Of a stretch of 64,000 nt of DNA, positions 24,597 to 54,167 are shown one piece after another. The translations under genes and the position numbers were made by a program. The notes below the pieces were generated by a model. The model did no database searches. It was not told the DNA's origin and was given only the letters and a program-made list of their open reading frames with translations. How positions within the stretch are numbered: position 1 is the first letter of the stretch; each line of letters starts with the position of its first letter. The stretch is from positions 144,090,001-144,154,000 of the forward strand of contig CM059431.1 in assembly GCA_030390025.1 (NCBI GenBank), written 5' to 3'. This stretch comes from Squalus acanthias (taxonomy: Eukaryota).

Positions 24597-27269
24597 AGAA
24601 TTAAACAAAAGCTTCCTGTCTTAACTAGAGTTAAATTACAGCCCGTGCGCTATTTTAGGAATAAACAGTATCAGAGGATAATTCTCCCACTTTGTGCCGT
24701 GTGTTTGATGTCTGCTGCTTTCCCCGGGGGAACATAATCGATTCCCGGTAAAACAGTGCACTTCCCGCTCAAGATTCAAAGAGAACAGTCATGACTGAGC
24801 TTCAGCAGTGGAGTAGAACATGTGGGCATCAGCGATAACTGCCTTACACCGCAGGCAAAGGAAACATTTTCCCATTTTAAATAATAGTTAAAGTTTCCTT
24901 TAGTGTAGAAACAATGTGTTACAATGGTGGTTATCTGTAATTCTGTAATCTCGGTGTGAATATTGCAGGCGCTGGTCTCTCCATCAGACTCCGCCCCCCA
25001 TTGTCTCCTGGACCAATAGAACGGGGCCCTGTCTCCTGATCAGTGTCTGATGATGGAGACAGTAGGAACTTGACTCGTCAATGTGACATAAGACATCTTT
25101 GTTCACAGATGTTTACTGAAAATCTCAACTGGTCATCAAAATGTCGGAATGTTATAACAGTGGACAGTCCATTCGACCCAATCAGTTCTTGTCGGCGTTT
25201 ACCCCCCAAAAGATCAAATAGTTCCAATCACTTTACCCGCCCATCCCAACATCCCGTCACCCGATTCTATTCATCCATCTATACAATTTAGTCTTCAACG
25301 TTGATATAATTTCAAGCTCTCTGAATTCCATAGCTTCAGAACTTTCCATGTAAAGATGTTTCTTCTCCACTCAGTTCTAAATCTATTACCTTTTAAAATC
25401 TATGGCCGTTACTTTCAGATCCCCAAACTAATGGAAGCAGTCTGCTTCTATCTATCCTGTCCCGTCTCTTTTTAACTGAAATCACCTGGGCACGAGGCAC
25501 CAAAATAGATCAATCTGGTATCAATACACAGCTTAGTGAAAGTCTGCACAGTGTAGTTAATATAATTGAAAGCTTTCTCTTAGAGATGGTTGTGTCCTTG
25601 CTTATTCTGAACAATGAGAATAATGTATTTTACAGCTTGAACACTAATCGAAACATCGGGAGTGAGCAGGGGCGCATCTAATCAAAAACCTCCAGACCCC
25701 CCGATTTTTTGATATAGTCAGAAAGAGCAGGAATAGCTTGTATCGGATATCTTGTGCTGCACGATCTGACGATATATCCGTATGCACAGAGGTGACTTAT
25801 TGCACGTGAAGCAACCAGCATGCGATACACATGAAGCAGATACCCTGAAGAATGGGTCCAAGATATGGTCAGTCACGCTGACATCACCACTACATGAAAT
25901 GGCAAATGTGGCTCTGGAGAGTGAGATCATGGGTAAAACCAAAGGGTAGAGATCTGTGCCATAGAATCGGTCCAGATACTTATATGATGCTAATGAAATG
26001 TTGCTTAATGTTTCCCTTAAATACTCTAACGCCAGTAGAGGGGTTAATATGAGGAAAGCGTTAATCAGACTGCCCTGATGTCTGCTAATGTAATATTTTC
26101 TTGGTTTCTCTTTATATTTTGTTAATGTTAATCTTTAGCCTTTGCTTGTTAAGCAAGGAATTACAAGTCAATTTAAAGCACCACTGAGTTGTTGGGCCAG
26201 GGCTGACTCAGCAACAAAGGTCAGTTTCGGAATGAAGTAATCAGAGATTTAATTAAAAACATGCTATTTTATATTGATTATACATTTTAGATTTCATTAA
26301 TCATTTGATAACGTGTGGGAAGGTGTTAGTTCTACAAAGAGAAATATCTGGCCATATATCATCATTTTTAATTGACATCAATGATACATAAACAAAGCAA
26401 AACATATCATTCACGGTTTCACTTGGTAGAATTGCAATTAACTGGATCAAGAGTGAAACTATCGATAAGATAATGAAATACTTGTTTGCTCAATGGGAAA
26501 ACAGCACGTTCAGCAAGGAAAACTGTCGTTATTGATCAAGGATAACCTAATTACATTTTCCTTATATGAAGCTGAATAATAATTTTAATATAATTATATT
26601 ATACAGAATTGTGTGCATTTCCATGTAGAGAACGTGAAGAAAATGTACGGAATCGAGCTGTTTTTAATGATTATTGGATTTTCTTAAATAAACAATAAGC
26701 TCAGAACTGCAAAACTTTTGAATCCCCAACCAACCATCATCAGATGTGGCTATAATTTGCACCGTTTAATTGTATGCTTACGCACTATTTTGTGTATAAT
26801 GCGCTTAATAAACCAATAATATCTCAATTGAATGTTCAAGAAACGTATTGAAAACCTGCCGCTAACAATAACCTTGGTATCTTAAATGTGCATGGGGTTC
26901 ATTTACTAATTGTTATTAAATACGCCCTTTACACGTCACTCTCTAATCTTTCACTTCATCCTGAGCTTCTCCGAAACCCAAACTCCAAACGGCTTCAGGT
27001 CCCCCTGGAGCCCAGACTCTGCCGATCCGGCTGGCATTCAGCTTTTGTGGGAAGTGGTGATTAATTCCGGGCTGTCAGTGTAATAGGCATATTCTCATTT
27101 AAATGGATTCAGAAGACCAACAATATTTAAGGCAATTGTTAGGCAGCAGGCAGCGATTTTAATTCCATTGGTCAGCGATGTATCTGCACGCAGCTTCGAT
27201 CGTGAAAAGCCGATATGTAATCAAGCCGATCAACTAATAACAACAATTAAAATAGGGAGCAAAAGCATG

Positions 27270-28649: not shown

Positions 28650-28738
28650 AAAATGGGAAGTCGCACAACACCAGGTTATAGTCCAACCGTTTTATTTGAA
28701 ATTACGAGCTTTCGGAGCTCTGCTCCTTCGTCAGGTAC
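28650..28738 (-). mobile_element. Penelope terminal-repeat fragment
   Basis: Matches the terminus of the Penelope copy at 42516-42642 (AAGTCGCACAACACCAGGTTATAGTCCAAC). Confidence 0.8.
28703..28737 (-). ncRNA. Minimal type I hammerhead ribozyme motif
   Basis: TAC CTGACGA A GGAGC-AGA-GCTCC GAAA GCTC GTA: core, stem II, stem I TAC/GTA, palindromic AGCT stem III, CUC triplet. Confidence 0.75.
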
Positions 28739-38542: not shown

Positions 38543-39244
38543 GATGTTTGTATTGTGATCAACTTTCGTTAACATAGTTGTCAACTTCAGAAGCAGATAA
38601 ATAGGTTTGTGCCGAATGACCCTCCTGGTAATTTAGTAAATAACATACAGAATACAGTTACCCGGTGAGTTGAAATTTTTCCACCCGGCTTCCCGTCTAA
38701 CTTTTGATTTCACATTTTGAACTTGTAGATCTTTATGACTGAACTCCTTGCCACAGTGAAGAATTAGAGCAATTTATGCATTATCCTTGTAACATTAAAA
38801 CTGACATATGATCATCTAGGGGTTTCCTCTTTATAAAGACAGAAAGCAGGATTTTACATAGATGGGATGTACAGCACAGAAACAGGCCATTCAGCCCAAC
38901 TGGTCCATGCCGGTGTTTATGCTCCACACGAGCCTCCTTTCCCCCTATTTCATCTAACCCAATCAACATATCCATATTTCCTTACACACTCATGTGGCTT
39001 CCCCTGAAATTAATCAAGTTTCTATAATTTCTTTAAAAGCTGGAATTGCCAATCCCTATAATCTCTGGGACTGAGCTGTGTGACATATAAAGTGCAGAAA
39101 TATCCTTTCTATGTTTAGATTGACAGTAGTGTCCCCACAGTCCAAATGAGGTAAGCCCAACAATTCTTGTGACAACAATAACAGGTTTCATTGTAACTCT
39201 TTCCCTCTGATATTCGAGGGGCCATTCTCGAACAAAGGGGAGAT

Positions 39245-40185
39245 CGGGAACTGGCATAGTGCAGGAACCCGTGTGACTGGGATCTCGCAGAGTGTGGGAA
39301 CCCGTGGGAATGGGAACTGGCAGAGTGTGGGAACCCGTGGGAATGGGAACTGGCAGAGTGTGGGAACCCGTGGGACTGGGAACTGGCAGAGTGCGTGAAC
39401 ACGTGGGACTGGGAACTGGCAGAGTGCGTGAACATGTGGGACTTAGATCTGGCAGAGTGCGGGAACACTTGGGACTGGGATCTGGCAGAGTGAGGGAACC
39501 CGTGAGACTGGGGACTGGCAGAGTGCGGGAACCCGTGGGACTGGGATCTGGCAAAATGTGGGAACCCGTGGGACTGGGATCTGGCAGAGTGTGGTAACCC
39601 GTGGGACTGGGAACTGCCAGAGTGCGTGAACCCGTGGGACTGGGATCTGGCAGAGTGCGGGAAGCCTTCGGACTGCAATCTGGCAGAGTGCGGGAACTCG
39701 TGCGACTGGGAACTGGCAGAGTGCGGGAACTCATGGGAATGGGAATTGGCAGAGTGTGGGATTCCGTGGGACTGGGATCTGGCAGAGTGTGGGAACCCCT
39801 GGGACTGGGATATGCAGAGTGCTTGAACCCGTGGGACTGGGATCTGGCAGAGTGTGGGAACCCATGGGACTGGGATCTGGCAGATTGCGGGAACACGTGG
39901 GACTGGGATCTGACAGAGTGTGACCCGTGGGACTGGGATCTGGCAGAGTGTGGGAACCCGTGGGACTGGGATCTGGCAGAGTGCGGGAACCCGTGGGACT
40001 GGGAACTGGCAGAGTGTGGGAATCCGTGGGACTGGGAACTGGCAGAGTGCGGGAACCCGTGGGACTGGGAACTGGCAGAGTGTGGGATTCCGTGGGACTG
40101 GGATCTGGCAGAGTGTGGGAATACCTGGGACTTGGATCCTGCAGAGTGTTTGAACCCGTGGGACTGGGATCTGGCAGAGTGTGTG
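39245..40185. repeat. 33-bp G-rich minisatellite
   Basis: Unit GGGAACCCGTGGGACTGGGATCTGGCAGAGTGT, about 28 copies. Confidence 0.95.
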
Positions 40186-40719
40186 ATCCGACAGAACGGA
40201 AGGGAACCAGCAGAGCGGGGCCATGATGAGAAGGAGAGCGGGAAGAGTCCAACAAATCAATAGATGATGAGGGCTCTACTTTGAATTAATAAAATATCAA
40301 TTGCTTTTAAATTTCGATTGGTGTAATGATATTAACAGCGATTTGATAAAATCGTTAAAAGAAGAGATTGGATCAGTTTCAAAAATAAATTGGTTAACAT
40401 ACTTGGCGTAAGAAAACTACTAGGCACTTGGTCTAAGCGTTAAACAAAGATTTAATCAACTGTTTTTCAACATGGAGGTCTAGTTGTGTCCTTCATTAGT
40501 TCCTGTTCAGAATGTCCTGCGCAAGCTGGGCCCGTGACAGATTATTTATACTCTCCCTGGACAGCGCAACCCGCAGGCCACTCAGTATTATTTCATAAAT
40601 CTTGAATGACAGATTCATGTCAATATGTATAATGTATTTTGCTTCAACTTAAATTGTTCATTATACAGAACAATGAAAGAATAATCTTCCAAACTGAGCA
40701 AGAAAGAGATCAATGTGAA

Positions 40720-42515: not shown

Positions 42516-43901
42516 ATGATGTGGAGATGCCGGCGTTGGACTGGGGTGGACAAAAATGAGAAGTCGCACAACACCAGGTTATAGTCCAACAGATTTATTA
42601 AATTTTACAAGCTTTCGGAGCGAATCCCTCCTTCCTCAGGTAGGGTAGCAGTGAGAGAATCTCCCAGAATTCACAATATAGACACAGACAAAATCTATTC
42701 AAATCTTTCCCTACATCAAAGACACACTAAGAGCACAGCCAAGACAATGAGATGTGTCCCAGGGGGTCCAACGTGTCAAAACACCTGCTGGCTGCATATC
42801 CTGTCAATTTGTGTTGGTTCTTGTGTTAGTCTTTTTTAAAAAAAACACCTGGAAAGACCGGCCATGATGTCAAGTCACGTTCTGTATCGTGACATGAACC
42901 CGATATCGCGATTGAGGCCATCCTCATGAGTGCGGAACTTGGCTATCAGTTTCTGCTCTATGATTTTGCGCTGTCGTGTATCCCGAAGGCCGCCTTGGAG
43001 AACGCTTACCCGCAGATCCGAGGCTGAATGCCCCTGGCTGCTGAAGTGTTCCCCGACTGGGAGGCAACCCTCCTGCCTGGCGATTGTTGCGCGGTGTCCG
43101 TTCATACGTTGTCTCAGTTTCTGCATGGTCTCGCCGATATACCATGCTCTGGAGCATCCTTTACTGCAACGTATCAGGTAGACAACGTTGGCCGAGTCAC
43201 ATGAGTATGTACCGTGTACCTGGTGGGTAGTGTCCTCACGTGTGATGATGGTATCTGTGTCCATGATTTGGCATGTCTTGCAGAGGTTGCCGTGGCAAGG
43301 TTGTGTGGTGTCGTGGTTGCTGTTCTCCTGAAAGATGGGTAATCTGCTGCGAACGATGGTACTTTTGAGGTTAGGCGGCTGCTTGAAGGCGAGTAGTGGA
43401 GGCGTGGGGCTGGCCTTAGCAAGGTGTTCGTCGTCATCGATGACATGTTGAAGGCTGCGAAGAACATGGCGTAGTTTTTCCGCTCCGGGGAAGTACTGGA
43501 CGACGTAGGGTACTCTGTTGGTTGTGTCCCGTGTTCATCTTCTGAGGAGGTCTATGCGGTTTTTCGCTGTGGCCCGTCGGAACTGTCGATCGACGAGTCG
43601 AGCGTCATATCCCGTTCTTACGAGGGCGTCTTTCAGTGTCCGTAGGTGTCCATCGCGTTCCTCCTCGTCTGAGCAGATCCTGTGTATTCGCAGGGCTTGT
43701 CCGTAGGGGATGGCTTCTTTTACGTGGTTAGGGTGGAAGCTGGAGAATTGGAGCATCGTGAGGTTGTCCGTGGGCTTGCGGTAGAGTGAAGTGCTGAGGC
43801 GTCCGTCTTTGATGGAGTTTCGTGTGTCCAAGAATGAAACCGATTCTGAGGAGTAGTCCATGGTGAGTTTGATGGTGGGATGGAACCTGTTGATGCTATC
43901 G
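42516..43901 (-). mobile_element. Penelope-like element, Neptune type, 5'-truncated (RT C-terminus + GIY-YIG endonuclease + terminal repeat)
   Basis: One frame 42875-43900 with a single TGA at 43535-43537: VSFLD...LYRKPTD...IPYGQALRIHRICS, linker CHGNLCKTC, NVVYLIRC...YIGET...RMNGHR. Confidence 0.92.
42606..42642 (-). ncRNA. Minimal type I hammerhead ribozyme motif in Penelope terminal repeat
   Basis: TAC CTGAGGA A GGAG-GGATTCG-CTCC GAAA GCTT GTA. Confidence 0.7.
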
Positions 43902-44189
43902 TCTAATTAAAGTAGATTAACGACAAATAGGAACCTGTAAGGGACGGGTGACTATTGAACCTCTGGGAGCTTCCTTGTTAGCTGTTTTATTTTAATGCTT
44001 TGTTTAATAGAATCTCAACAGCGACGAGGGTATCTTAGAAACAAAAACAATGAAAATGATAGCAACACAGGGAACACAATAAAACCATAGACATTTGCTC
44101 TGTGAGTAGGTCGTGTGACCCATTCTATCTGTACCGGGTCCTTTGATACCACAGTCAAAAACTATCCGCACTGACTTCTTCTCTCTCAA

Positions 44190-44830: not shown

Positions 44831-46519
44831 TGAAGCGAGATCAGGGATGAACAATTTGTAACTGATTCAAAGTTGCTGGTATTTTTCAATGATTATTTAA
44901 GACTATGTGTAACCGAATAATAAGACGGTAATGACCAAAGATTCTTTCTGACCGTCCGCAAATGTTCAGCCAACCAGAGGCTACTTAATATCAGTTTTAT
45001 TTCAGCTGAATTTCTAGCAACTTTTTTTTACAGATAAGTTGCATGAAAAGTAATAGTTAATAACTTTATGAATAATCATTCATGTTTACATTCCTTTACT
45101 ATTTTGTTTGCGAGACTGGTTGAGAAAGAATTACAATAATATTACTCAAGATACTTTTATCGACAGCACAAAACAAGAACAGACTCCATCTTTGTGCTGA
45201 GTGAGAGACACCAGTCAGCGCACAATCGAGATTTTAAGTCAGTACCTGGGACAAAAGAGGTGAAAGGTCTCATCGATGAGCCGAATTCCGACTGTGTCCG
45301 CCATTCGAACACTGATCACGTGAAAAGATCCGGCTCCATTTGTCAATGAGGAATGGAGTGCGATAGAGAGACCCGCGCCTGCAAGATTCACACCAAACTT
45401 CCAGGAAATTAACAGTATCAGCGATCGCAGGACCTTTGATAGTTTTCATGATGCGGAGATGCCGGTGTTGGACTGGGGTGGACAAAAATGAGAAGTCGCA
45501 CAACACCAGGTTATAGCCTCAGCAGCCAGGAGAAGGAGAGTGAGGAGCAGCAGCAGCAGCAGCAGCAGAGGCAGAGTGGTGGTCTCTGTGACCAGGAAGA
45601 GGAGAAGGAGACCAGACAGCAGACCACCACCAACAACCAACAACCACAACAACTGAGGTGCCTGGAGAGAGAGGACAGGAGAGGAGAAAGAAAAGAAAAG
45701 AAGGCCAAGGCCATCAACACCAGAGGAGAGGCCTTTCCATCACTGCCTCCTCAATTGGCCTCCATTTTAGGAGAGGGAGAGAGGGGAGAAAACATCACAA
45801 CAAACATCATCTGTTTGGAAGGAGGAAGAAGGAAGGAAAGAACATCTACAGGTGGGTGTCTATTTGGTGCACTCTCCCAGAGACTTTGTTTTGTAGGTGG
45901 GGGGAGGAAAGAAGAAAAGAAGAAGCCCGGAACATCCAAGGGGTGTATGTGTGTGTGTGGCTTCTGTAAAAACTAGGACGCACACACCATATTAAACGTC
46001 CCTTTCCCATTGCCTGGCCTGGGACAGCTGGAGCTGCCTAGGTGAAGTTCCCCAATTTAAGTTCATCTAATTGGGCATCGTTAAGACCTGGTGCAGGACT
46101 GAGCCTGGGCATCTCCAGCTTTCCCAGGTGAAGACATCTTCTCCCCCCACCAGAAGACCACCACCAAAGACTTTTATTTACATCGGAGAGTGCACCCCCT
46201 GCCAACACCCACCCACCCACCATCCTGAGTGGCGACCCTGCCCTTGCTGCTTCCCTCCTTCCCACCCCCTCTCTCTCTCTCTTTGTCTCTTGTCTCTCTC
46301 TGCCTCTCTCTCCAAGAGGCACCTCAATTTACTTTTAATTAAGTACCCATTGAGCAGAGGGAGAAGGCCCCTCTCCTAATTAATTCATATAAAGGGAGAG
46401 GTGTGCCTACAATTTAAGAGCTCCCTCTGCTCAGGGGAAAAAAAAATACAAAACCGAAGCCATTAACACCTTCAGAGCTGTGACTTGGGGTGAGAGTAGC
46501 CCTTAAAGACCCGTCCATT

Positions 46520-48671
46520 ATGGCGAGCACATCTTCGTCGGTGGCGGGGGCAGCGAGGACGCATGCGAGCGTGGCAGCCGCGGCCACGGCCGCAGCCACG
46601 AGTCCTCCTGTTACCCCGTCAACTTTTACCCTCCTTACGAGGAAGAATGGGGTCAAGAGCTACACTCACCCCAATATGACAATAGAGGCGTGCGTGAAGG
46701 CCATGGCTGGGGTTGTCGGCCCTTCAGCCATCGTCGCCGCCTCTAAAATGTACGGCAAGGCTGTGTTCTTCCTGGGGTCGGAGCGGGCGGTGTCCCTGGC
46801 CATCGAGAAGGGGCTCACCGTGGGCGGGACCTTCCTGCCGGTGGACCCCCTTGAGGCCACCGTGCAAAGGATTGTTGTTTCCAACGTCCCGCCCTTTGTT
46901 CCGGGTGAGCTCTCCTCCCCCACCTACGTCAACTGGGGGAGGTGAGGTCGGGGATCACACCCATCCCGCTCGGCTTCCGGGAAGCCAGCCTTCGGCACGT
47001 CTTCTCCTTCCGGCGCCAGCTTTTCGTCCGGCTGGCGCGGGAGGAGGACGTGGACGGCGCGTTCACGGTGCTCCACGGGGGGACCGCCCACCGCGTCTTC
47101 TGGACCTCGGACGGCGTGCGGTGCTACGCCTGTAAGGAGGTGGGGCACGTCCGCAAAAACTGCCCCGCCTCCAAGGCCGCCACGACACCTAGCGCGGCCA
47201 GGGCTGGCGCCGCCGCCCCCCTCCCCCTGATACTGTCCGCGCGTCGAAGACAACGGATGCGCGGTCAACGTCGGGGGCCAACACCATCACGGCCTCCGGC
47301 GGGGGGGAGGGAGAGCGTCCGAGGGGAAGGAAGGCGCTTAGAAAGACTAAACACCTAAGGGCGGATCCCCTCGTGGACAAAACCACCGATTTGCCCGAAC
47401 TCACGCCCGCGTACATCGCGGAGTTGACCGGGACGCGTGAGGCTGGGGGGGTCCTCGTGCCCGGGCCCGTGACCGTGACCGCAACTGCCAAGGCAGCTAA
47501 ATCAAGACCTGCGGCCGGGCTCGGTCCCGAGGGGCCCAAGAAACCCAGTCATCGGAAGGGGGCAGAGAGGGAGGCCCCAGCAGACATGGAGGCCTCCCCC
47601 TCTCCGGGCCCCAATATGTTAAAAAGGAAGCTCCACCCCCAGGAGGAGGACTGCGAGGAGGAAGGTCCCTCCGCAGAAGGGGAGTCGTCGCCCGCCACGG
47701 GTACTGCGCCCCACCCCACCACCGTCATCGTCGCGCGCGAGCGGCAGGGGTCGCCTGTCCCTCGGGAAGGTGAGACAGCCGAGTCTGTCCGACCTGTGCC
47801 TCCCGGGGATGGGGAAGAGACCCTGCCCGTGGGGGGGGGCGCGGAACAACCCGCGGATATTAATAAAAATCCAGAACCGTTGCTCCTCGCCGGGTAGGGC
47901 GTCCTGGGGACTGGGGCGGGCGAGGCCAAAGAGGCTGAAGCCGAGCCCGCCTTTTACAACCCAGATATCTCCCAGGGACTGCTCGACCTGGTGGAGGAGT
48001 ACAACAATCCCCAGCCCGCTGGGTCGGAGGTTGGTGGCGGGGAGACAGAAAGCCCCCTGACTCCGTCTCTGATGTTGGCGCCGGACGTACTGGAGGACTT
48101 TGAAATTATTTTCTCCCCGGTTTCTCCGGTCGCTCCGGCGCCTGAGGCGGGGGGGAGGCCTGAGCCGCCGCCGCCTCCCGGCCCGGCGCCCCTGAAGGAG
48201 CCCAGGGTGGACTCCTCTGCCACCGATCCTGGGGGTGGGATCGTGAAGGAGGCGGGGCCGGCCGGCGCGGCCGAGCCGTTCGCTGCACCCCGTGCGACGG
48301 ACGGGTTGGTCGCCGGTGACGACCTCCCGGAGGAGGACGGGGACTCGGTGTTGGGCACCGAGGACGATTTGGAGTCCATCGGCAGCGAGGCGATGGACGC
48401 CCTCGTGCCCTTCACCGACTCTCCCCTCATCCCCGTAGGGGAACTCCGGGATTTTATGGCCACGAGCCAGGGTCGTCACAAGAAGATCCGGCTGGCCCTC
48501 GACAAGTGGTCGGAGCTGGCGCTGCTCGTCGTGTCCGTCCGCGCCGCCATTAAAATCATGGGCGTGGACAAGGACATTGGCCGGCTCGAGCTGCGTCGGC
48601 TCAAGAGTTTCCACACTGGGCTGCTGAGGGAGTGGCGGTCGTCAGTGACCGCGCTCCCTCCCCTCCGTTAG
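46520..48671 (+). pseudogene. Tx1 ORF1 (gag-like, CCHC zinc knuckle), frameshifted
   Basis: LTRKNGVK...IVAASKMYGKAVFFL...IVVSNVPPF; CYACKEVGHVRKNC; long Pro/Glu-rich region; several breaks. Confidence 0.85.
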
Positions 48672-48696
48672 GTAGAGGTTGCACTATGCTTCTGAG

Positions 48697-51600
48697 ATGA
48701 AGATAACCATAGCCAGCCTCAACATCAACGGCAGCAGGGAGGCGCGCCGTAGATTCAATAACTTCTCGGTCCTACAGGACGGGAAATATGCGGTGTGCTT
48801 CCTGCAAGAAACCCACACCGTTCCGGGAGACGAGGCCACGTGGCTCCTGGAGTGGCAAGGAGGGGTCAGCATGAGTCACCTCTCCAACAATTCCTGCGGG
48901 GTGGCTGTCTTGCTGGCCCCGCATTTTCAGCCGGAGATCTTGAGGGTCAAGGAGCACGTGCCGGGCCGCTTGCTCCAGGTCACTGTTCGCCTGGGAGGCA
49001 TGCCGCTCCATTTAGTGAACGTGTACGCCCCCCGGACCGGTGCGCAGCAAGTGCGCTTCTTCGGAGAAGTGTCCGCTCTTCTGGGCTCCCTCAACGTGGG
49101 CGAGTGCGTCATCCTCAGGGGGGATTTCAATTGTACCCTCGAGGCGCGGGACCGGTCGGGTCCCCCGCGAAGCCCGGCGGCGATGGAGAAGTTGCGGGAC
49201 CTGGTCGGGTCCTTCGACTTGGTGGACGTCTGGCGAAATCTCCATCCCGACTCCAGCGCCTTCACGAGCGTGAGGTCTGGAGGAGGAAGGTCCAGAATCG
49301 ACCGCCTTTACATTTCCCGGGCATACGTCTCCTGCGTTCCGGCGGCTTCCATGCGGCCGGTGCCGTGCACGGACCACCACCTGGTGTGGGCGGAGCTCGC
49401 TCCGCTGCGCGCGCGGGGGGGTGTCCACGTACTGGCATTTTAACAACCTGCTGCTGGAGGACGCGCCATTCCGGGATTCGTTTCGCCGGTTCTGGGCCGA
49501 CTGGAGAAGGAAGCGGGGAGGCTTCCCCTCCTTTAGGCTATGGTGGGACGTGGGAAAGGCTCACGTCCGCGTCTTCTGTCAGGAGTACGCGAAAGGGGTC
49601 GACCAAGAGGCGGGAGGCCCGGGTCGGGCGATTGGAGAAAGAAGTGCTCGACCTGGAGTCCCGTCTCGGTCAAGTCGTCGAGGACCCGACCCTGCGGAAG
49701 GTGTACGAAGAGAAGAAGGGCGCGCTGAAGGAACTGCAGCTGGTCGGGTCCCGAGGCGCGTACGTGAGGTCGCGGATCCAGTTCCTGCGGGACCTGGACC
49801 GCGGTTCCCCCTTCTTCTACTCGCTGGAAAAAAGACGGGGGGTCCGTAAGCAGCTCTTGGGGCTGCTGGCCGACGACGGATCTCTGGTCTCGGATCCGGA
49901 GGGCATCAGCGCGGAGGCCCGGGCCTATTACGGGGCTCTGTTCTCTTCGGATCCGTCCAGCGAGGATGCGCGCAGAGTTTTGTGGGAGGACCTGCCGAAG
50001 GTCGGCCCGGAGGACGCCGAGAATTTAGAAGCTCCGCTAAGCTTGGCGGAGCTGACCGGCGCCCTGCGCCAGCTCTCGAGGGGCAAGTCCCCGGGGCTGG
50101 ACGGGCTAACCGTGGAGTTCCACAGGGCGTTCTGGGACGTCTTGGGGGAAGACTACGCGCGGGTCCTGGGGGAAAGTCTGGCGACCGGGGAGATGCCCCT
50201 CTCTTGGCGCGGGGCGGTCATCGTCCTGCTGCCCAAGAAGGGCGATCTCCGCCTACTTAAGAACTGGCGCCCGGTCTCCCTCCTCAGCACGGACTACAAA
50301 ATTTTCGCCAGGGCTATGTCTGCTCGCCTTGGCACCGTGCTGGCCCACATGATCCACGCCGACCAGTCCTACACGGTCCCGGGCCGGACAATCCACGACA
50401 ACATCCATCTGGACCGGGACCTGGTCCACCATTCCCAGAGGGCTGGTCTGTCGGTCGCCTTCCTTTCCCTAGATCAGGAGAAGGCGTTCGACAGGGTGGA
50501 TCACGAGTATCTTTTCGGGACTCTGCGCGCATTCAGGTTTGGGACGCATTTCGTCGCCCGGATCCGACTTCTGTACGCTGCCGCGGAGTGTCTAATTAAA
50601 GTTAACGGGTCTTTGACGGCGCCCCTTCGCTTCGGGAGGGGGGTGCGTCAGGGATGCCCCATGTCCGGTCAGTTATACGCCGTTTGCGTGGAGCCTTTCC
50701 TGCGCCTCTTGCGGAAGAGGTTGACGGGACTGGCTCTGCAAGGGCCGGGCGTGGAGGTGGTCCTCTCGGCTTACGCCGATGACATGCTCCTCGCGGTCAC
50801 GGATCCCGTCGACTTGCGGAGGATGCGAGAATGCCAACAGATTTAATCGGACACATCCTCCGCCAAGATCAACTGGGAGAAATGTTCTGGACTCCTGGTG
50901 GGCCCATGGCAGGTGGACTCCCTGCCAGAGGAGAACGGGCCTTTCGCCTGGAGCACCACGCACCTCCTCTACCTGGGAGTCTACCTCAGCCCGGCCGAGG
51001 ACGCCTGGCCGGCGAACTGGCAAGAGCTGGAGACCAAGGTCACCGCTCGCCTAGGGCGCTGGACAGGACTGCTCCGAGTGTTGTCCTACAGGGGTCGAGC
51101 GCTGGTCATAAACCAGCTGGTGGCCGCCATGTTGTGGTACCGGTTGGTCACTTTGATCCCTCCCCCTGCGTTTGTCGCCAAGATGCAGAAGAAGCTCGTC
51201 GACTTCTTCTGGGACAAAAGAAAGCACTGGGTCTCTGCCACGGTTTTGAGTCTCCCGCTTAGGGAGTGCGGTCAGGCGCTGGTGTGCCTTCGCACCCAGG
51301 CGGCGACTTTCCGTCTTCAGACGCTGCAGAGATACCTGTACGTGGAGAATCCTCCTAGGTGGCGTGCGCTGGCGACGTATTTCTTCCGCCAGCTGCACGG
51401 CCTCAATTACGACACGCAGCTCCTGTTTGTGAGAGTGGGTGGCACGCGTGCCAGCCTGCGGGAGCTGCCTGTCTTCTACCAGGAACTGCTATGGGTTTGG
51501 AACAGCGTCGCCTCCGGGCGCAGTTCTCCCCCGTCAGGAGCGGTGGCCGTCCTTCGGGAGCCGCTGTTCAGGAATCCGCACCTCCACGACCGTGGGTTCG

Positions 51601-52598
51601 GCTGGCTGGCGGATGGCAGGGCTGTGCCTGGTAAGGTGACCAGAGTCGGGGACCTGCTCAATGGCGGAGTAGCGGGCGGGATGGCGCCGGAGGAGTTGGC
51701 GAGGCGCATGTCCTGGGTGAACGTCCGGCTCGCGGTCAAAGCCATCGAGTCGCTAAAAGTGGCACTGGGCCCCGTCTCCACTAGGTGTTTCGAGGAGGCT
51801 CCAGCACGTGGGACGATCCCGTCCGAACTGACCCCCGTTCGGACGGAATTCCTTATCGGCGCCCGGCCCCGAATCCTCCCTCGGGAGCCGCCGCCTCACC
51901 ACTTGAGCCTTCTCGGAGAAATGCCCTCCGTGCCCTTTCAATCCGCACGGAGGCGTTTCCTGTACGGGCTGCTGCTGCACACTCTCTACTTTGCCATCTT
52001 CGTCTGCCGTCCGGACACGCCTTGGCGTACCATCCTGCCGTCCGGCGGAGGCGGAGATCCCCATTGGAAGGCTGTCTACGCGGGAGTCTTCCCTTGTTCT
52101 ATTGGGGACTTGGCCTGGAGGGTGTTGCACGGAGCAGTCCCGTGCAATGGGATTTTAAATAGGTTTACGGACTCCCAGGCTGCTTGCCATTTCTGCGGCC
52201 TGGAGGAGTCCGTCTTTCACATTTATATTGAATGTGAGAGGTTGCAGACCCTCTTTCATTATTTGAAGGGGCTGCTCCTCAATTTCTGGTTGCACTTCAG
52301 CCCCACGCTCCTGATCTACGGTCACCCGGTGCGGAGGGGAGTGGGTAGGTCGGAGGACCTCCTCGTAGGACTGCTCCTGGGCCTGGCCAAGAAAGCCATT
52401 AATTGGTCCAGGCAGCGGGCGGTAGAGGGGGTCGTTCGGCCCGATTGCCTGCCTCTCTTCCGCGGCCATGTTCGCGCCCGGGTCGCCCTGGAGATGGAGC
52501 ATGCGGTGTCCGCCGGCACGCTTGAGTTTTTCCGCGACCGGTGGGCGCCGTGGGGATTGGAGTGCATCTTCACCCCGGACTTCCAAATTTTAATTTGA
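48697..52598 (+). pseudogene. Tx1 ORF2 (APE endonuclease, reverse transcriptase, C-terminal zinc motif), disrupted
   Basis: SLNING, FLQETH, GDFNC, SRIDR, TDH; KSPGLDG, WRPVSLL, DQEKAFDRV, GVRQGCPMS, YADD; CHFC..H...C; frameshifts near 49420 and 49595, TAA at 50844. Confidence 0.92.
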
Positions 52599-52702
52599 TT
52601 TATTAAGTTTCATTTAAAGTTTTAATTGATTTACAGTAAATTTGGGTTCTGTCCAACCAAAAAGAGGAACACCAGGTTATAGTCCAACAGTTTTATTTGA
52701 AA

Positions 52703-52740
52703 TCACAAGCTTTCGGAGCGGCTGCTCCTTCGTCAGGTGA
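52703..52740 (-). ncRNA. Minimal type I hammerhead ribozyme motif
   Basis: TCAC CTGACGA A GGAGC-AGCC-GCTCC GAAA GCTT GTGA. Confidence 0.75.
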
Positions 52741-54167
52741 AGGAGGAGCAGCCGCTCCGAAAGCATGTGATTTCAAATAAAACTGTTGGACTATAACCTG
52801 GTGTTGTTCGACTTCTCACTTTTGATAGTTTCGGCACCGAATAAAACATTATTGATGATTTGAAAGTGGCGCGCCCGATCCCAGTACTTGCAGTGTAAGG
52901 TGGATTCCTCTGTTGCCTACATGCCCACTGCTGAATCACATCATTGTTATCTTTGATCCCTGAACATGAAATGTGCTGAAATTTCCGGAATAGGTAATGT
53001 TAACTTAGTGAAAGAAGCGAGAAAAACTAAAGTAAAGCAGACATCAAACGCATGCTATAAAATCGAATCAATGTTCACACATGAACTCTCCCACTTCTCA
53101 CATTTTCAGAAAGAAGGACGTTCTACGGTGGAAAAGGAGTTGAAATTGAGCTTCAGTTACGAGGAAGCTTTTGTTTGACTTGATTACTTTTAATCTCATT
53201 TTCTAACGAATCTCAGAATGAGTGTCCAGGGATATTTCACCACAGTCTTCAGCTCTTCTCTGAATTTCCTCTGGGTGGCTGCATAAATACACGGGTTTTG
53301 AAAGCCACTCAAAAACTTCAGCATGGCTCAGGTTTCTGTGGCGATATATCCAGGGTCTGTGCGGTCGCCTCGGTAATAAGTGGTGTTTCCCAGTCTGGTA
53401 GTTAACAAACTCACGGCATTTGTCAGCCACAACAGTATAAAACTGCCCGATATAGTGAAGAGTAAAATGATAGATTTCCTTCGGTTCTACATCTCCGGAT
53501 CACACTGATTCTCAGTCCTGTGACCCCGGAGTTCCCTGCGCGCTCTGCTGGCCACTAATATACGACGGACTGTCAAAGAATTAAACAAGACAATTAAACT
53601 GAAAGGAAGCCAAACAACCCAGGCGCTGTGAAACCAGAGGTAGGCAACACCTGCAGGTGAGGAAAAAAAAGCCACACTTGGACGGCAGCCCCACTGCACC
53701 TTGTTAATTATTTGCTGATGTTCAAATCCAAACAATACGGGGATGTCTTTAAATAAGGTCAGGACCGAGAAGGTTGTTATAATCGCGGCCGCAGTTCTCT
53801 TGGTGCAATATTTTGTCTTAAACTTCTGGCAGCAGAGAACTACAAATCGGTCAAATGTAAATGAGACGGTGAACCAAACAGACAAGTCGAGGGTGACACC
53901 AGTCATGTATAAAATGAATTTACACACCAGCGTGTGAGACAGCAATGAAAGTGGAAAGTGATAACTGTAAATATGATATACTACTACGTTGATGACCATG
54001 ACCAGTAGATCTGCTGTTGCCATGGACACCATGTAGACAGAGATACACTTGGAAAGGCCGCAGTTTCCTCGGGAGAGAATCATAATTGTCATCAAGTTCG
54101 CTGTAAGAAAGAGAAAGGAAATAAATAATTTTACAGTGTCTGCTTGAAATATCAATGGAGATTTATT

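Follow-up and report, generated by a model that had tools for sequence, protein, structure and literature searches.

A retrotransposon found inside another mobile element may have come there by chance or by choice, and a locus of Squalus acanthias raises exactly this question. In the 64,000-nucleotide stretch analysed here, which we call the window (contig CM059431.1 of assembly GCA_030390025.1, positions 144,090,001 to 144,154,000, forward strand), a Tx1-clade long interspersed nuclear element (LINE) interrupts the 3′ tail of a Penelope-like element, and the original prediction proposed from this one copy that the Penelope terminus is the target of the whole LINE family. The proposal stands: tabulating the flanks of other copies, as had been suggested, showed that they are not random, and it is nearly certain that this Tx1 family targets one exact position in the Penelope-like 3′ tail. 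To the wider explanation, in which Penelope-tail targeting by a young Tx1 family arose through a recent switch from a Harbinger target, by way of endonuclease residue 113 together with RNA pairing, we assign a probability of roughly 0.78.

All 30 of the top 3′-end matches that were read (of 40 scored, among 2017 candidates) have AACACC as their next letters. For a sample blind to the flank, we used an exact 27-letter pattern of the element 3′ end, which gave 108 matches, and classified the first 100. The exact target 15-mer follows 55 of these ends, while the remaining 45, read individually, comprise 9 variant Penelope sites, 4 ends at a second AACACC, 9 unique sites and 23 ends of a class termed ‘T-type’. 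The Penelope site is found at 64 of 77 non-T-type ends versus none of 23 T-type ends (Fisher p 9e-14; first 100 of 108), where chance would place 0.001 of 100 ends there. Kojima’s rule calls a family target-specific when over 20% of its flanks are of one type (PMC4494074); both the 64 of 100 listed ends and the 64 of 77 non-T-type ends exceed this threshold. Across the 3.71-Gb genome, we counted 989 exact Tx1-Penelope junctions versus 94,441 empty sites (27-mers), with reversed controls giving 0. Independent 5′-truncated copies of many lengths carry their own 11–16 bp duplications, at unique sites too, and these separate duplications rule out hitch-hiking of one composite. In Tx1 arrays with a period of ~7.2 kb, neighbouring units carry different 3′ variants, as fits repeated independent insertion.

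Several further observations concern the Penelope tail. A minor second site (4 of 77 non-T-type ends; L025, L065, L078, L081) is provided by another AACACC in the tail, which lies on the opposite strand ~9 bp from the element’s end. Tx1 3′ ends also occur in facing pairs at a spacing of 100–200 bp, which would fit hits on both arms of a single Penelope hairpin (G000:C2:164562548(+)/164562686(-), C2:164776943/164777081, C4:152277722/152277820 and, for L008, C6:54005633/54005826); with ~1% of sites occupied such pairs look commoner than chance, the reading covering L008 only. Tandem 5′-truncated units can share a truncation point and differ in their 3′ variants (L002, L008, L009, L021, L025), and a new complementary DNA (cDNA) may have switched onto the resident copy, although unrelated copies are equally alike in the shared 5′ parts (one pair of this baseline was misoriented). 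The sequence runs of organisms A to E contain part of the stretch, and DNA contig X11 of organism C continues for 30 letters past the junction against a threshold of 31, a hint that the junction is shared between species.

Where, then, do the T-type ends lie? Eight of the 23, in two arrays, are within another repeat, three more are accompanied by Harbinger-like spacers, and the other 12 lie elsewhere. One copy of that repeat carries open reading frames (ORFs) for a Myb/SANT-like domain (Myb_DNA-bind_5, E 3e-05) and a DDE_Tnp_4 transposase (E 2e-20) on opposite strands, which identifies this second target, by its predicted domains, as a PIF/Harbinger DNA transposon. Within the 4.5 kb read, the best inverted match to its 5′ end is 13/20; the far end may lie beyond this stretch or have been lost. 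The Harbinger lineage has 119 exact junctions versus 1,543 target motifs (0 and 12 in the controls), and inserts at T/TACA, ~165 bp from the Harbinger 5′ end. At 19 5′ junctions selected by a Harbinger-plus-Tx1 query, the upstream sequence is the Harbinger 5′ part (12), a preceding Tx1 (5) or other flank (2). Harbinger-type insertions duplicate ~136 bp of target, and because the copies of this duplication are 99–100% alike within a locus versus 84–93% between loci (3 loci), they must have been copied from the local target; the Harbinger-derived end of the cDNA would anneal downstream of the nick. T-type off-target copies belong to a true lineage rather than a mere site class, as 7 of 11 carry both diagnostic internal single-nucleotide polymorphisms (SNPs) of old Harbinger-type copies; the exceptions are L146 and L163, with one SNP each, and L151 and L152, with neither.

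Some loci of the sister lineage deserve separate mention. The idea that one copy (L129) shows a Harbinger leader moved to an unrelated position was rejected, because the 3′ end of L129 itself is a Harbinger junction (C11:123009007); L134, seen without its 3′ flank, is the sole remaining candidate. At G000:C20:54788854 (L150/L091), a Harbinger-lineage copy has entered a Penelope element, not at the nearby Penelope site but at a TTACA site resembling the Harbinger target. A mixed array of old, young and truncated units within one Harbinger (G000:C17:26542113-26577814) contains the one Arg-bearing Harbinger-array endonuclease and is a natural recombinant. Seven near-identical full-length starts in another Harbinger (G000:C19:33340289-33383500) were probably amplified after insertion, and the unit examined there has a frameshifted endonuclease.

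The 5′ ends of the two lineages bear on which target came first. Penelope-type copies start exactly where the Harbinger 136-bp duplication ends, and the first 29 bases of one of them (L032) match Harbinger in register at 23 of 29 positions (next best 17), with 0 of 200,000 shuffles as good. This Harbinger vestige on Penelope-type 5′ ends points to a switch from Harbinger to Penelope; no Penelope remnant was seen in the Harbinger-type copies examined. Endonuclease DNA diversity is 2.98% among Harbinger types versus 0.77% among Penelope types, and in the endonuclease DNA tree the Penelope types are nested inside the Harbinger types, a nesting whose weak support (Shimodaira–Hasegawa-like approximate likelihood-ratio test, 82) tells against leaning on it. 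On these grounds a recent switch with Harbinger as the earlier target is very probable, direction included. The Harbinger-type 5′ junction falls at Harbinger offset 300, and according to PMC4494074 (section 15) the crocodilian Tx1-9_AMi inserts at a distance of ~300 bp from the 5′ ends of Harbinger; by analogy, the agreement is a hint of an old target. One subfamily (L040, L044, L052, L053, L057, L058, L059) has ~45 bp more Penelope tail at its 5′ end, the join being through GAGGAGCAGC-like microhomology; this repeats, on a small scale, the capture of the Harbinger leader.

With Penelope- and Harbinger-type endonucleases 97–99% identical, the search for what changed along with the target has few candidates to consider. 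In a codon alignment of 25 copies, which omits two of the 14 Harbinger-type copies (L173 and L174, with no endonuclease at the expected place), residue 113 is the only endonuclease position of 242 at which the majority differs: Gln in 11/12 Harbinger-type and Arg in 13/13 Penelope-type copies (p 2.7e-6). The change in this codon is non-synonymous and is the best-separating nucleotide of 725, with background CpG decay (56/811) far below it. An earlier result from two Harbinger-type copies, that no endonuclease residue is diagnostic, was overturned by this alignment, a frameshift having hidden the position. Residue 113 aligns unambiguously with Asn118 of human L1, which is reported to contact the major groove (PMC8565326). 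The 56 relatives that have the motif carry Gln, Thr, Asn, Ser, Val, Cys or Ile there. The first cut-strand base past the presumed nick is G at the Penelope site versus A at the Harbinger site, as expected from the rule that Arg pairs with G and Gln with A.

Insertions away from either target tell a similar story. With lineage set by internal SNPs, giving 8 Penelope-lineage and 6 Harbinger-lineage sites, the first duplicated base is A at 7/8 versus 0/6 (p 0.005) and the base before the duplication is C at 7/8 versus 1/6 (p 0.026), and off-target sites follow lineage. Three of four off-target copies with 5′ windows examined are 5′-truncated.

Putting these results together, we propose that a young Tx1-clade LINE inserts by target-primed reverse transcription, antisense, at one position of the Penelope tail, and that this lineage would have arisen recently from a Harbinger-targeting one. 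The site, the orientation, the 11–16 bp duplications, the tandem stacking and the rare insertions at other C/AACA sites are all observed. The switch would most likely have needed the Gln-to-Arg change at residue 113, by which the base recognised immediately after the nick, on the cut strand, went from A to G, and the tail-less RNA 3′ end, pairing with the nicked strand, may have helped. The lineage would thereby have gained ~60 times more landing sites, harmless to the host. That residue 113 was a main cause of the switch is a little short of an even chance; the broader idea, that Gln-to-Arg at a major-groove residue moved a LINE to a retroelement tail and that residue 113 is a simple base reader across the L1/Tx1 group, we offer more tentatively still.

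A number of observations weigh against this reading. The switch is one evolutionary event only, so that any change on that branch correlates with the target, and the C-terminal half of ORF2 has three fixed and two near-fixed amino-acid differences (4 Harbinger-type versus 18 Penelope-side copies, the latter GG-type only and ORF1 lying outside the comparison). The Arg-bearing Harbinger-array unit mentioned above (H_C17) breaks the correlation, as does L151, an off-target copy with Penelope-lineage SNPs at a TT site. Some 850,000 genomic 7-mers (scaled from the window) match the target core, and since a 7-mer cannot explain 83% on-target insertion, further determinants exist. For 9 of the 14 off-target sites, bases at the junction are assignable to either the duplication or the RNA, which leaves the off-target base tests partly open to that ambiguity, and the nick is placed from the duplications alone. 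Moreover, the L1 endonuclease is described as reading mostly DNA shape, with contacts that cannot explain its whole preference (PMC8565326), and a grafted Tx1L loop did not transfer specificity (PMC1950540).

It is possible, though we lean against it, that the RNA drove the switch: a transcript tail running into the flank must pair with the nicked strand, a chance insertion at a Penelope look-alike site supplied a donor whose tail selects Penelope, and residue 113 merely marks the branch. Such a course fits an element that lacks a poly(A) tail, two endonucleases that are nearly the same, and two targets with the core WACACY in common. It also fits the two bases before the duplication, which differ by subfamily (GC, TC, TG, GG) and are in some cases non-target, indicating that flank bases were taken up into the 3′ end and mutated. 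In three full-length copies (L047/L094, L060/L104, L034), the 5′ 15-mer carries a variant absent from the copy’s own 3′ 15-mer and common to other loci; in full-length copies the RNA may carry part of the 5′ 15-mer, rather than this being copied from the local target. However, the base outside the duplication tracks lineage, being C in 6/6 G-type unique sites where the element’s own base is G, and an RNA tail cannot select a base outside the duplication. The best-separating nucleotide, moreover, is non-synonymous and falls at a reported DNA-contact position, and no RNA 3′ end was observed in the contigs.

A protein determinant elsewhere, in the C-terminal part of ORF2 or in ORF1, alone or with residue 113, is unlikely. 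The fixed and near-fixed C-terminal differences would be its basis, and it would help with a precision for which a 7-mer cannot account, but we found no citable target-reading role for those positions and the Penelope-side sample was of the GG type only. A single Penelope::Tx1 composite spread by Penelope retrotransposition or segmental duplication, without any targeting, has next to no chance, since near-identical arrays such as the C19 units and one flank common to L006 and L069 are outweighed by truncated copies, varied in length, that share one insertion base but have separate duplications and so refute it, by flanking Penelope tails of different subfamilies and hairpin forms, by neighbouring array units with different 3′ variants and by unique-site insertions that retain the motif.

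The assignment of the element to the Tx1 clade was confirmed by a reverse transcriptase (RT) tree, in which the window element falls in a 10-row clade with stingray, sturgeon, Tx1L and turtle sequences (support 99/97; 32 of 120 listed matches used, no L1 outgroup, midpoint-rooted). Its closest protein match is a stingray sequence; Xenopus Tx1L ORF2 is 60% identical to the window element over a 419-aa query in the protein search, and with Tx1L ORF2 as the tblastn query its residues 1-1293 are covered in three pieces. The clade’s features are all present, namely RT grouping with Tx1L, an ORF2 with endonuclease, RT and zinc region, and a CCHC-bearing ORF1; the ORF2 endonuclease also matches L1 endonuclease structures (E about 2e-20). 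In the window copy, ORF1 is broken by frameshifts and a stop, and ORF2, whose own stop is at 52596-52598, has frameshifts near 49422 and 49594 and a stop at 50844. Because of these lesions in both frames, the copy reads as dead.

The main target is, by its predicted domains, a Penelope-like element with an RT followed by a GIY-YIG endonuclease and a hammerhead-type terminal repeat. Occupied tails L012 and L013 lead into an ORF 91–97% identical to the window ORF 42878-43534, which resembles Atlas GIY-YIG clusters (score 0.96-0.97, the family being on 18-27% of members); Pfam gave no GIY-YIG match on that ORF piece. RVT_1 lies upstream in sister Penelope copies (Pfam, E 6e-10), and a PDB sequence search with the Penelope RT gave no match. 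Of 47 distinct Penelope tails, 21 fit a minimal-hammerhead descriptor; among these N7 is variable, G never stands at H17, and stem II has at least 4 pairs in 20 of 21. Rfam found no hammerhead in the window, and the fold of a single hammerhead motif was not significant (z -1.56). Nothing shows a tie between the predicted hammerhead and targeting; the motif is on the other strand, and off-target insertions occur without a hammerhead. The Tx1 insert is antisense to the Penelope-like element. In two Penelope copies (L190, L193) the 3′ part faces the RT region head to head in inverted orientation, as it does in the short hairpin cassettes.

Within the window, the nested arrangement described in the original prediction was recovered (Table 1). 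The outer 11-mer, TTTGATAGTTT, has exactly two occurrences in the window (45435 and 52821), and the inner 15-mer, AACACCAGGTTATAG, flanks the insert at 45502 and 52668; the insert of 7151 bp sits in a cassette that measures 209 bp without it (~210 bp predicted), and the hammerhead motif lies 20 bases from the inner-duplication end, as foreseen. Two claims needed correction. Uninterrupted copies of AACACCAGGTTATAG were claimed at two further Penelope termini: one is at 28667, and the second at 42570, not 42572, and the inverted arm holds one more (52791, minus strand). The ‘CpG-rich’ element is so in its coding part (observed/expected 0.90, flanks 0.57–0.58), whereas its 5′ untranslated region (UTR) is CpG-poor (0.12). 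The flank left of the cassette (45344-45411) has a 78% inverted match at 24938-25003, which places the Penelope cassette itself inside an older repeat. Elsewhere in the window, several long overlapping open frames at 39033-40285, in a G-rich, strongly skewed stretch, are probably a tandem repeat.

Table 1. Positions of the nested elements and of related empty sites in the window
Feature	Positions	Strand	Remarks
Empty Penelope tail, target uninterrupted	28650..28736	-	
Longer empty Penelope copy: RT-region end, GIY-YIG ORF, hammerhead, uninterrupted target	42516..43906	-	GIY-YIG ORF 42875-43534; target at 42570
Outer 11-bp duplication of Penelope cassette, left copy	45435..45445		11-mer otherwise only at 52821
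Penelope-like element 3′ end (target, upstream side)	45446..45516	-	97% identical to 42516-42584
Inner 15-bp duplication, 5′ copy	45502..45516	+	
Tx1-clade LINE, full length, Penelope-targeting lineage	45517..52667	+	Broken coding frames
Harbinger-derived vestige at element 5′ end	45517..45536	+	16/20 identical, in register, Harbinger position ~300
5′ UTR, CpG-poor, simple-repeat-rich	45517..46519	+	
ORF1, gag-like	46520..48671	+	PF00098, E 3.8e-05; CCHC zinc knuckle near 47119-47166
ORF2 apurinic-type endonuclease domain	48697..49422	+	PF03372, E 1.4e-10
Endonuclease codon 113 (Arg here; Gln in Harbinger lineage)	49033..49035	+	Aligned with human L1 Asn118
Reverse transcriptase core	50232..50828	+	PF00078, E 2.1e-33
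ORF2 C-terminal zinc-binding region	52059..52244	+	PF13966, E 1.4e-05, slightly below curated cut-off
3′ UTR, 69 bp	52599..52667	+	Without poly(A) tail
Inner 15-bp duplication, 3′ copy	52668..52682	+	Putative first-strand nick at 52667/52668
Remaining Penelope cassette	52683..52820	-	68-bp hairpin, arms 52668-52735 and 52738-52805
Putative minimal type I hammerhead motif of Penelope tail	52703..52741	-	Architecture as in PMC4209133
Second, empty target 15-mer inside cassette hairpin	52791..52805	-	
Outer 11-bp duplication, right copy	52821..52831		

How LINEs with apurinic-type endonucleases gain and change target specificity is an open question, as few base contacts are visible in the structures and a grafted loop failed to transfer specificity (PMC8565326, PMC1950540), and the Tx1 families already known to be target-specific have diverged too far for a cause to be singled out. 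Near-identical lineages with hundreds of copies plus off-target sites leave residue 113, a handful of changes in the C-terminal part of ORF2 and the tail of the RNA as candidates, and so make the question directly testable, with a bearing on building site-specific retrotransposon insertion tools. If the proposal is right, residue 113 (L1 Asn118; Gln or Asn for A, Arg for G) would retune LINE target choice across the L1/Tx1 group. The list of safe Tx1 landing sites is in any case joined by a retroelement tail.

Tx1 families that target other transposons are already known, and the suggestion that such a ‘parasite of a parasite’ is undescribed does not hold: PMC4494074 reports Tx1L in Tx1D, Tx1-Mar in Mariner, Tx1-9_AMi in Harbinger and two families in retrotransposons with long terminal repeats (LTRs), and also describes Tx1 targeting of piggyBac-type elements. 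It is the Penelope target class that was not found in print. In our literature search, which did not extend to subscription-only articles, Repbase or Dfam, no publication describing a Tx1 that targets Penelope or a switch of this kind turned up, and ‘Penelope’ and ‘shark’ are absent from the main text of PMC4494074, whose supplements may list more targets.

Among the closest known systems is Tx1L of Xenopus laevis (YTX2_XENLA, P0026), which inserts in the DNA transposon Tx1D. It belongs to the same RT sub-lineage, has two ORFs, and like the present family combines a sequence-specific apurinic-type endonuclease with another transposon as target (PMC1950540, PMC4494074); unlike it, our family uses a retroelement tail, or Harbinger in the sister lineage, and Tx1L has Thr at position 113. 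Tx1-9_AMi, Tx1-Mar, Tx1-8_Crp and Tx1-4_AMi (Harbinger, Mariner and LTR targets) also prefer transposons, the shared Harbinger offset of Tx1-9_AMi and our sister lineage being a comparison by description only, and SINEU shows tandem insertions around the duplication and target-derived 5′ extensions, as here; for the crocodilian families, the available text of PMC4494074 ties no switch to a residue. Single residues of the DNA-binding face are reported to affect recognition in TRAS1 (Asp-130) and R1Bm (Tyr98) (PMC2868851), yet TRAS1, R1Bm and SART1 offer engineered mutants of distant families, whereas here two natural sister lineages have different targets. As for the target itself, Penelope-like elements (Xena, Poseidon, Neptune) carry minimal hammerheads (PMC4209133), and ours resembles them in its RT plus C-terminal GIY-YIG ORF and in the minimal type I hammerhead motif of its terminal repeat, with a bulge between positions 9 and 10.1, a G10.1-C11.1 pair and a palindromic loop 3. 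Here such an element is the target of another retrotransposon, and its self-cleavage is putative.

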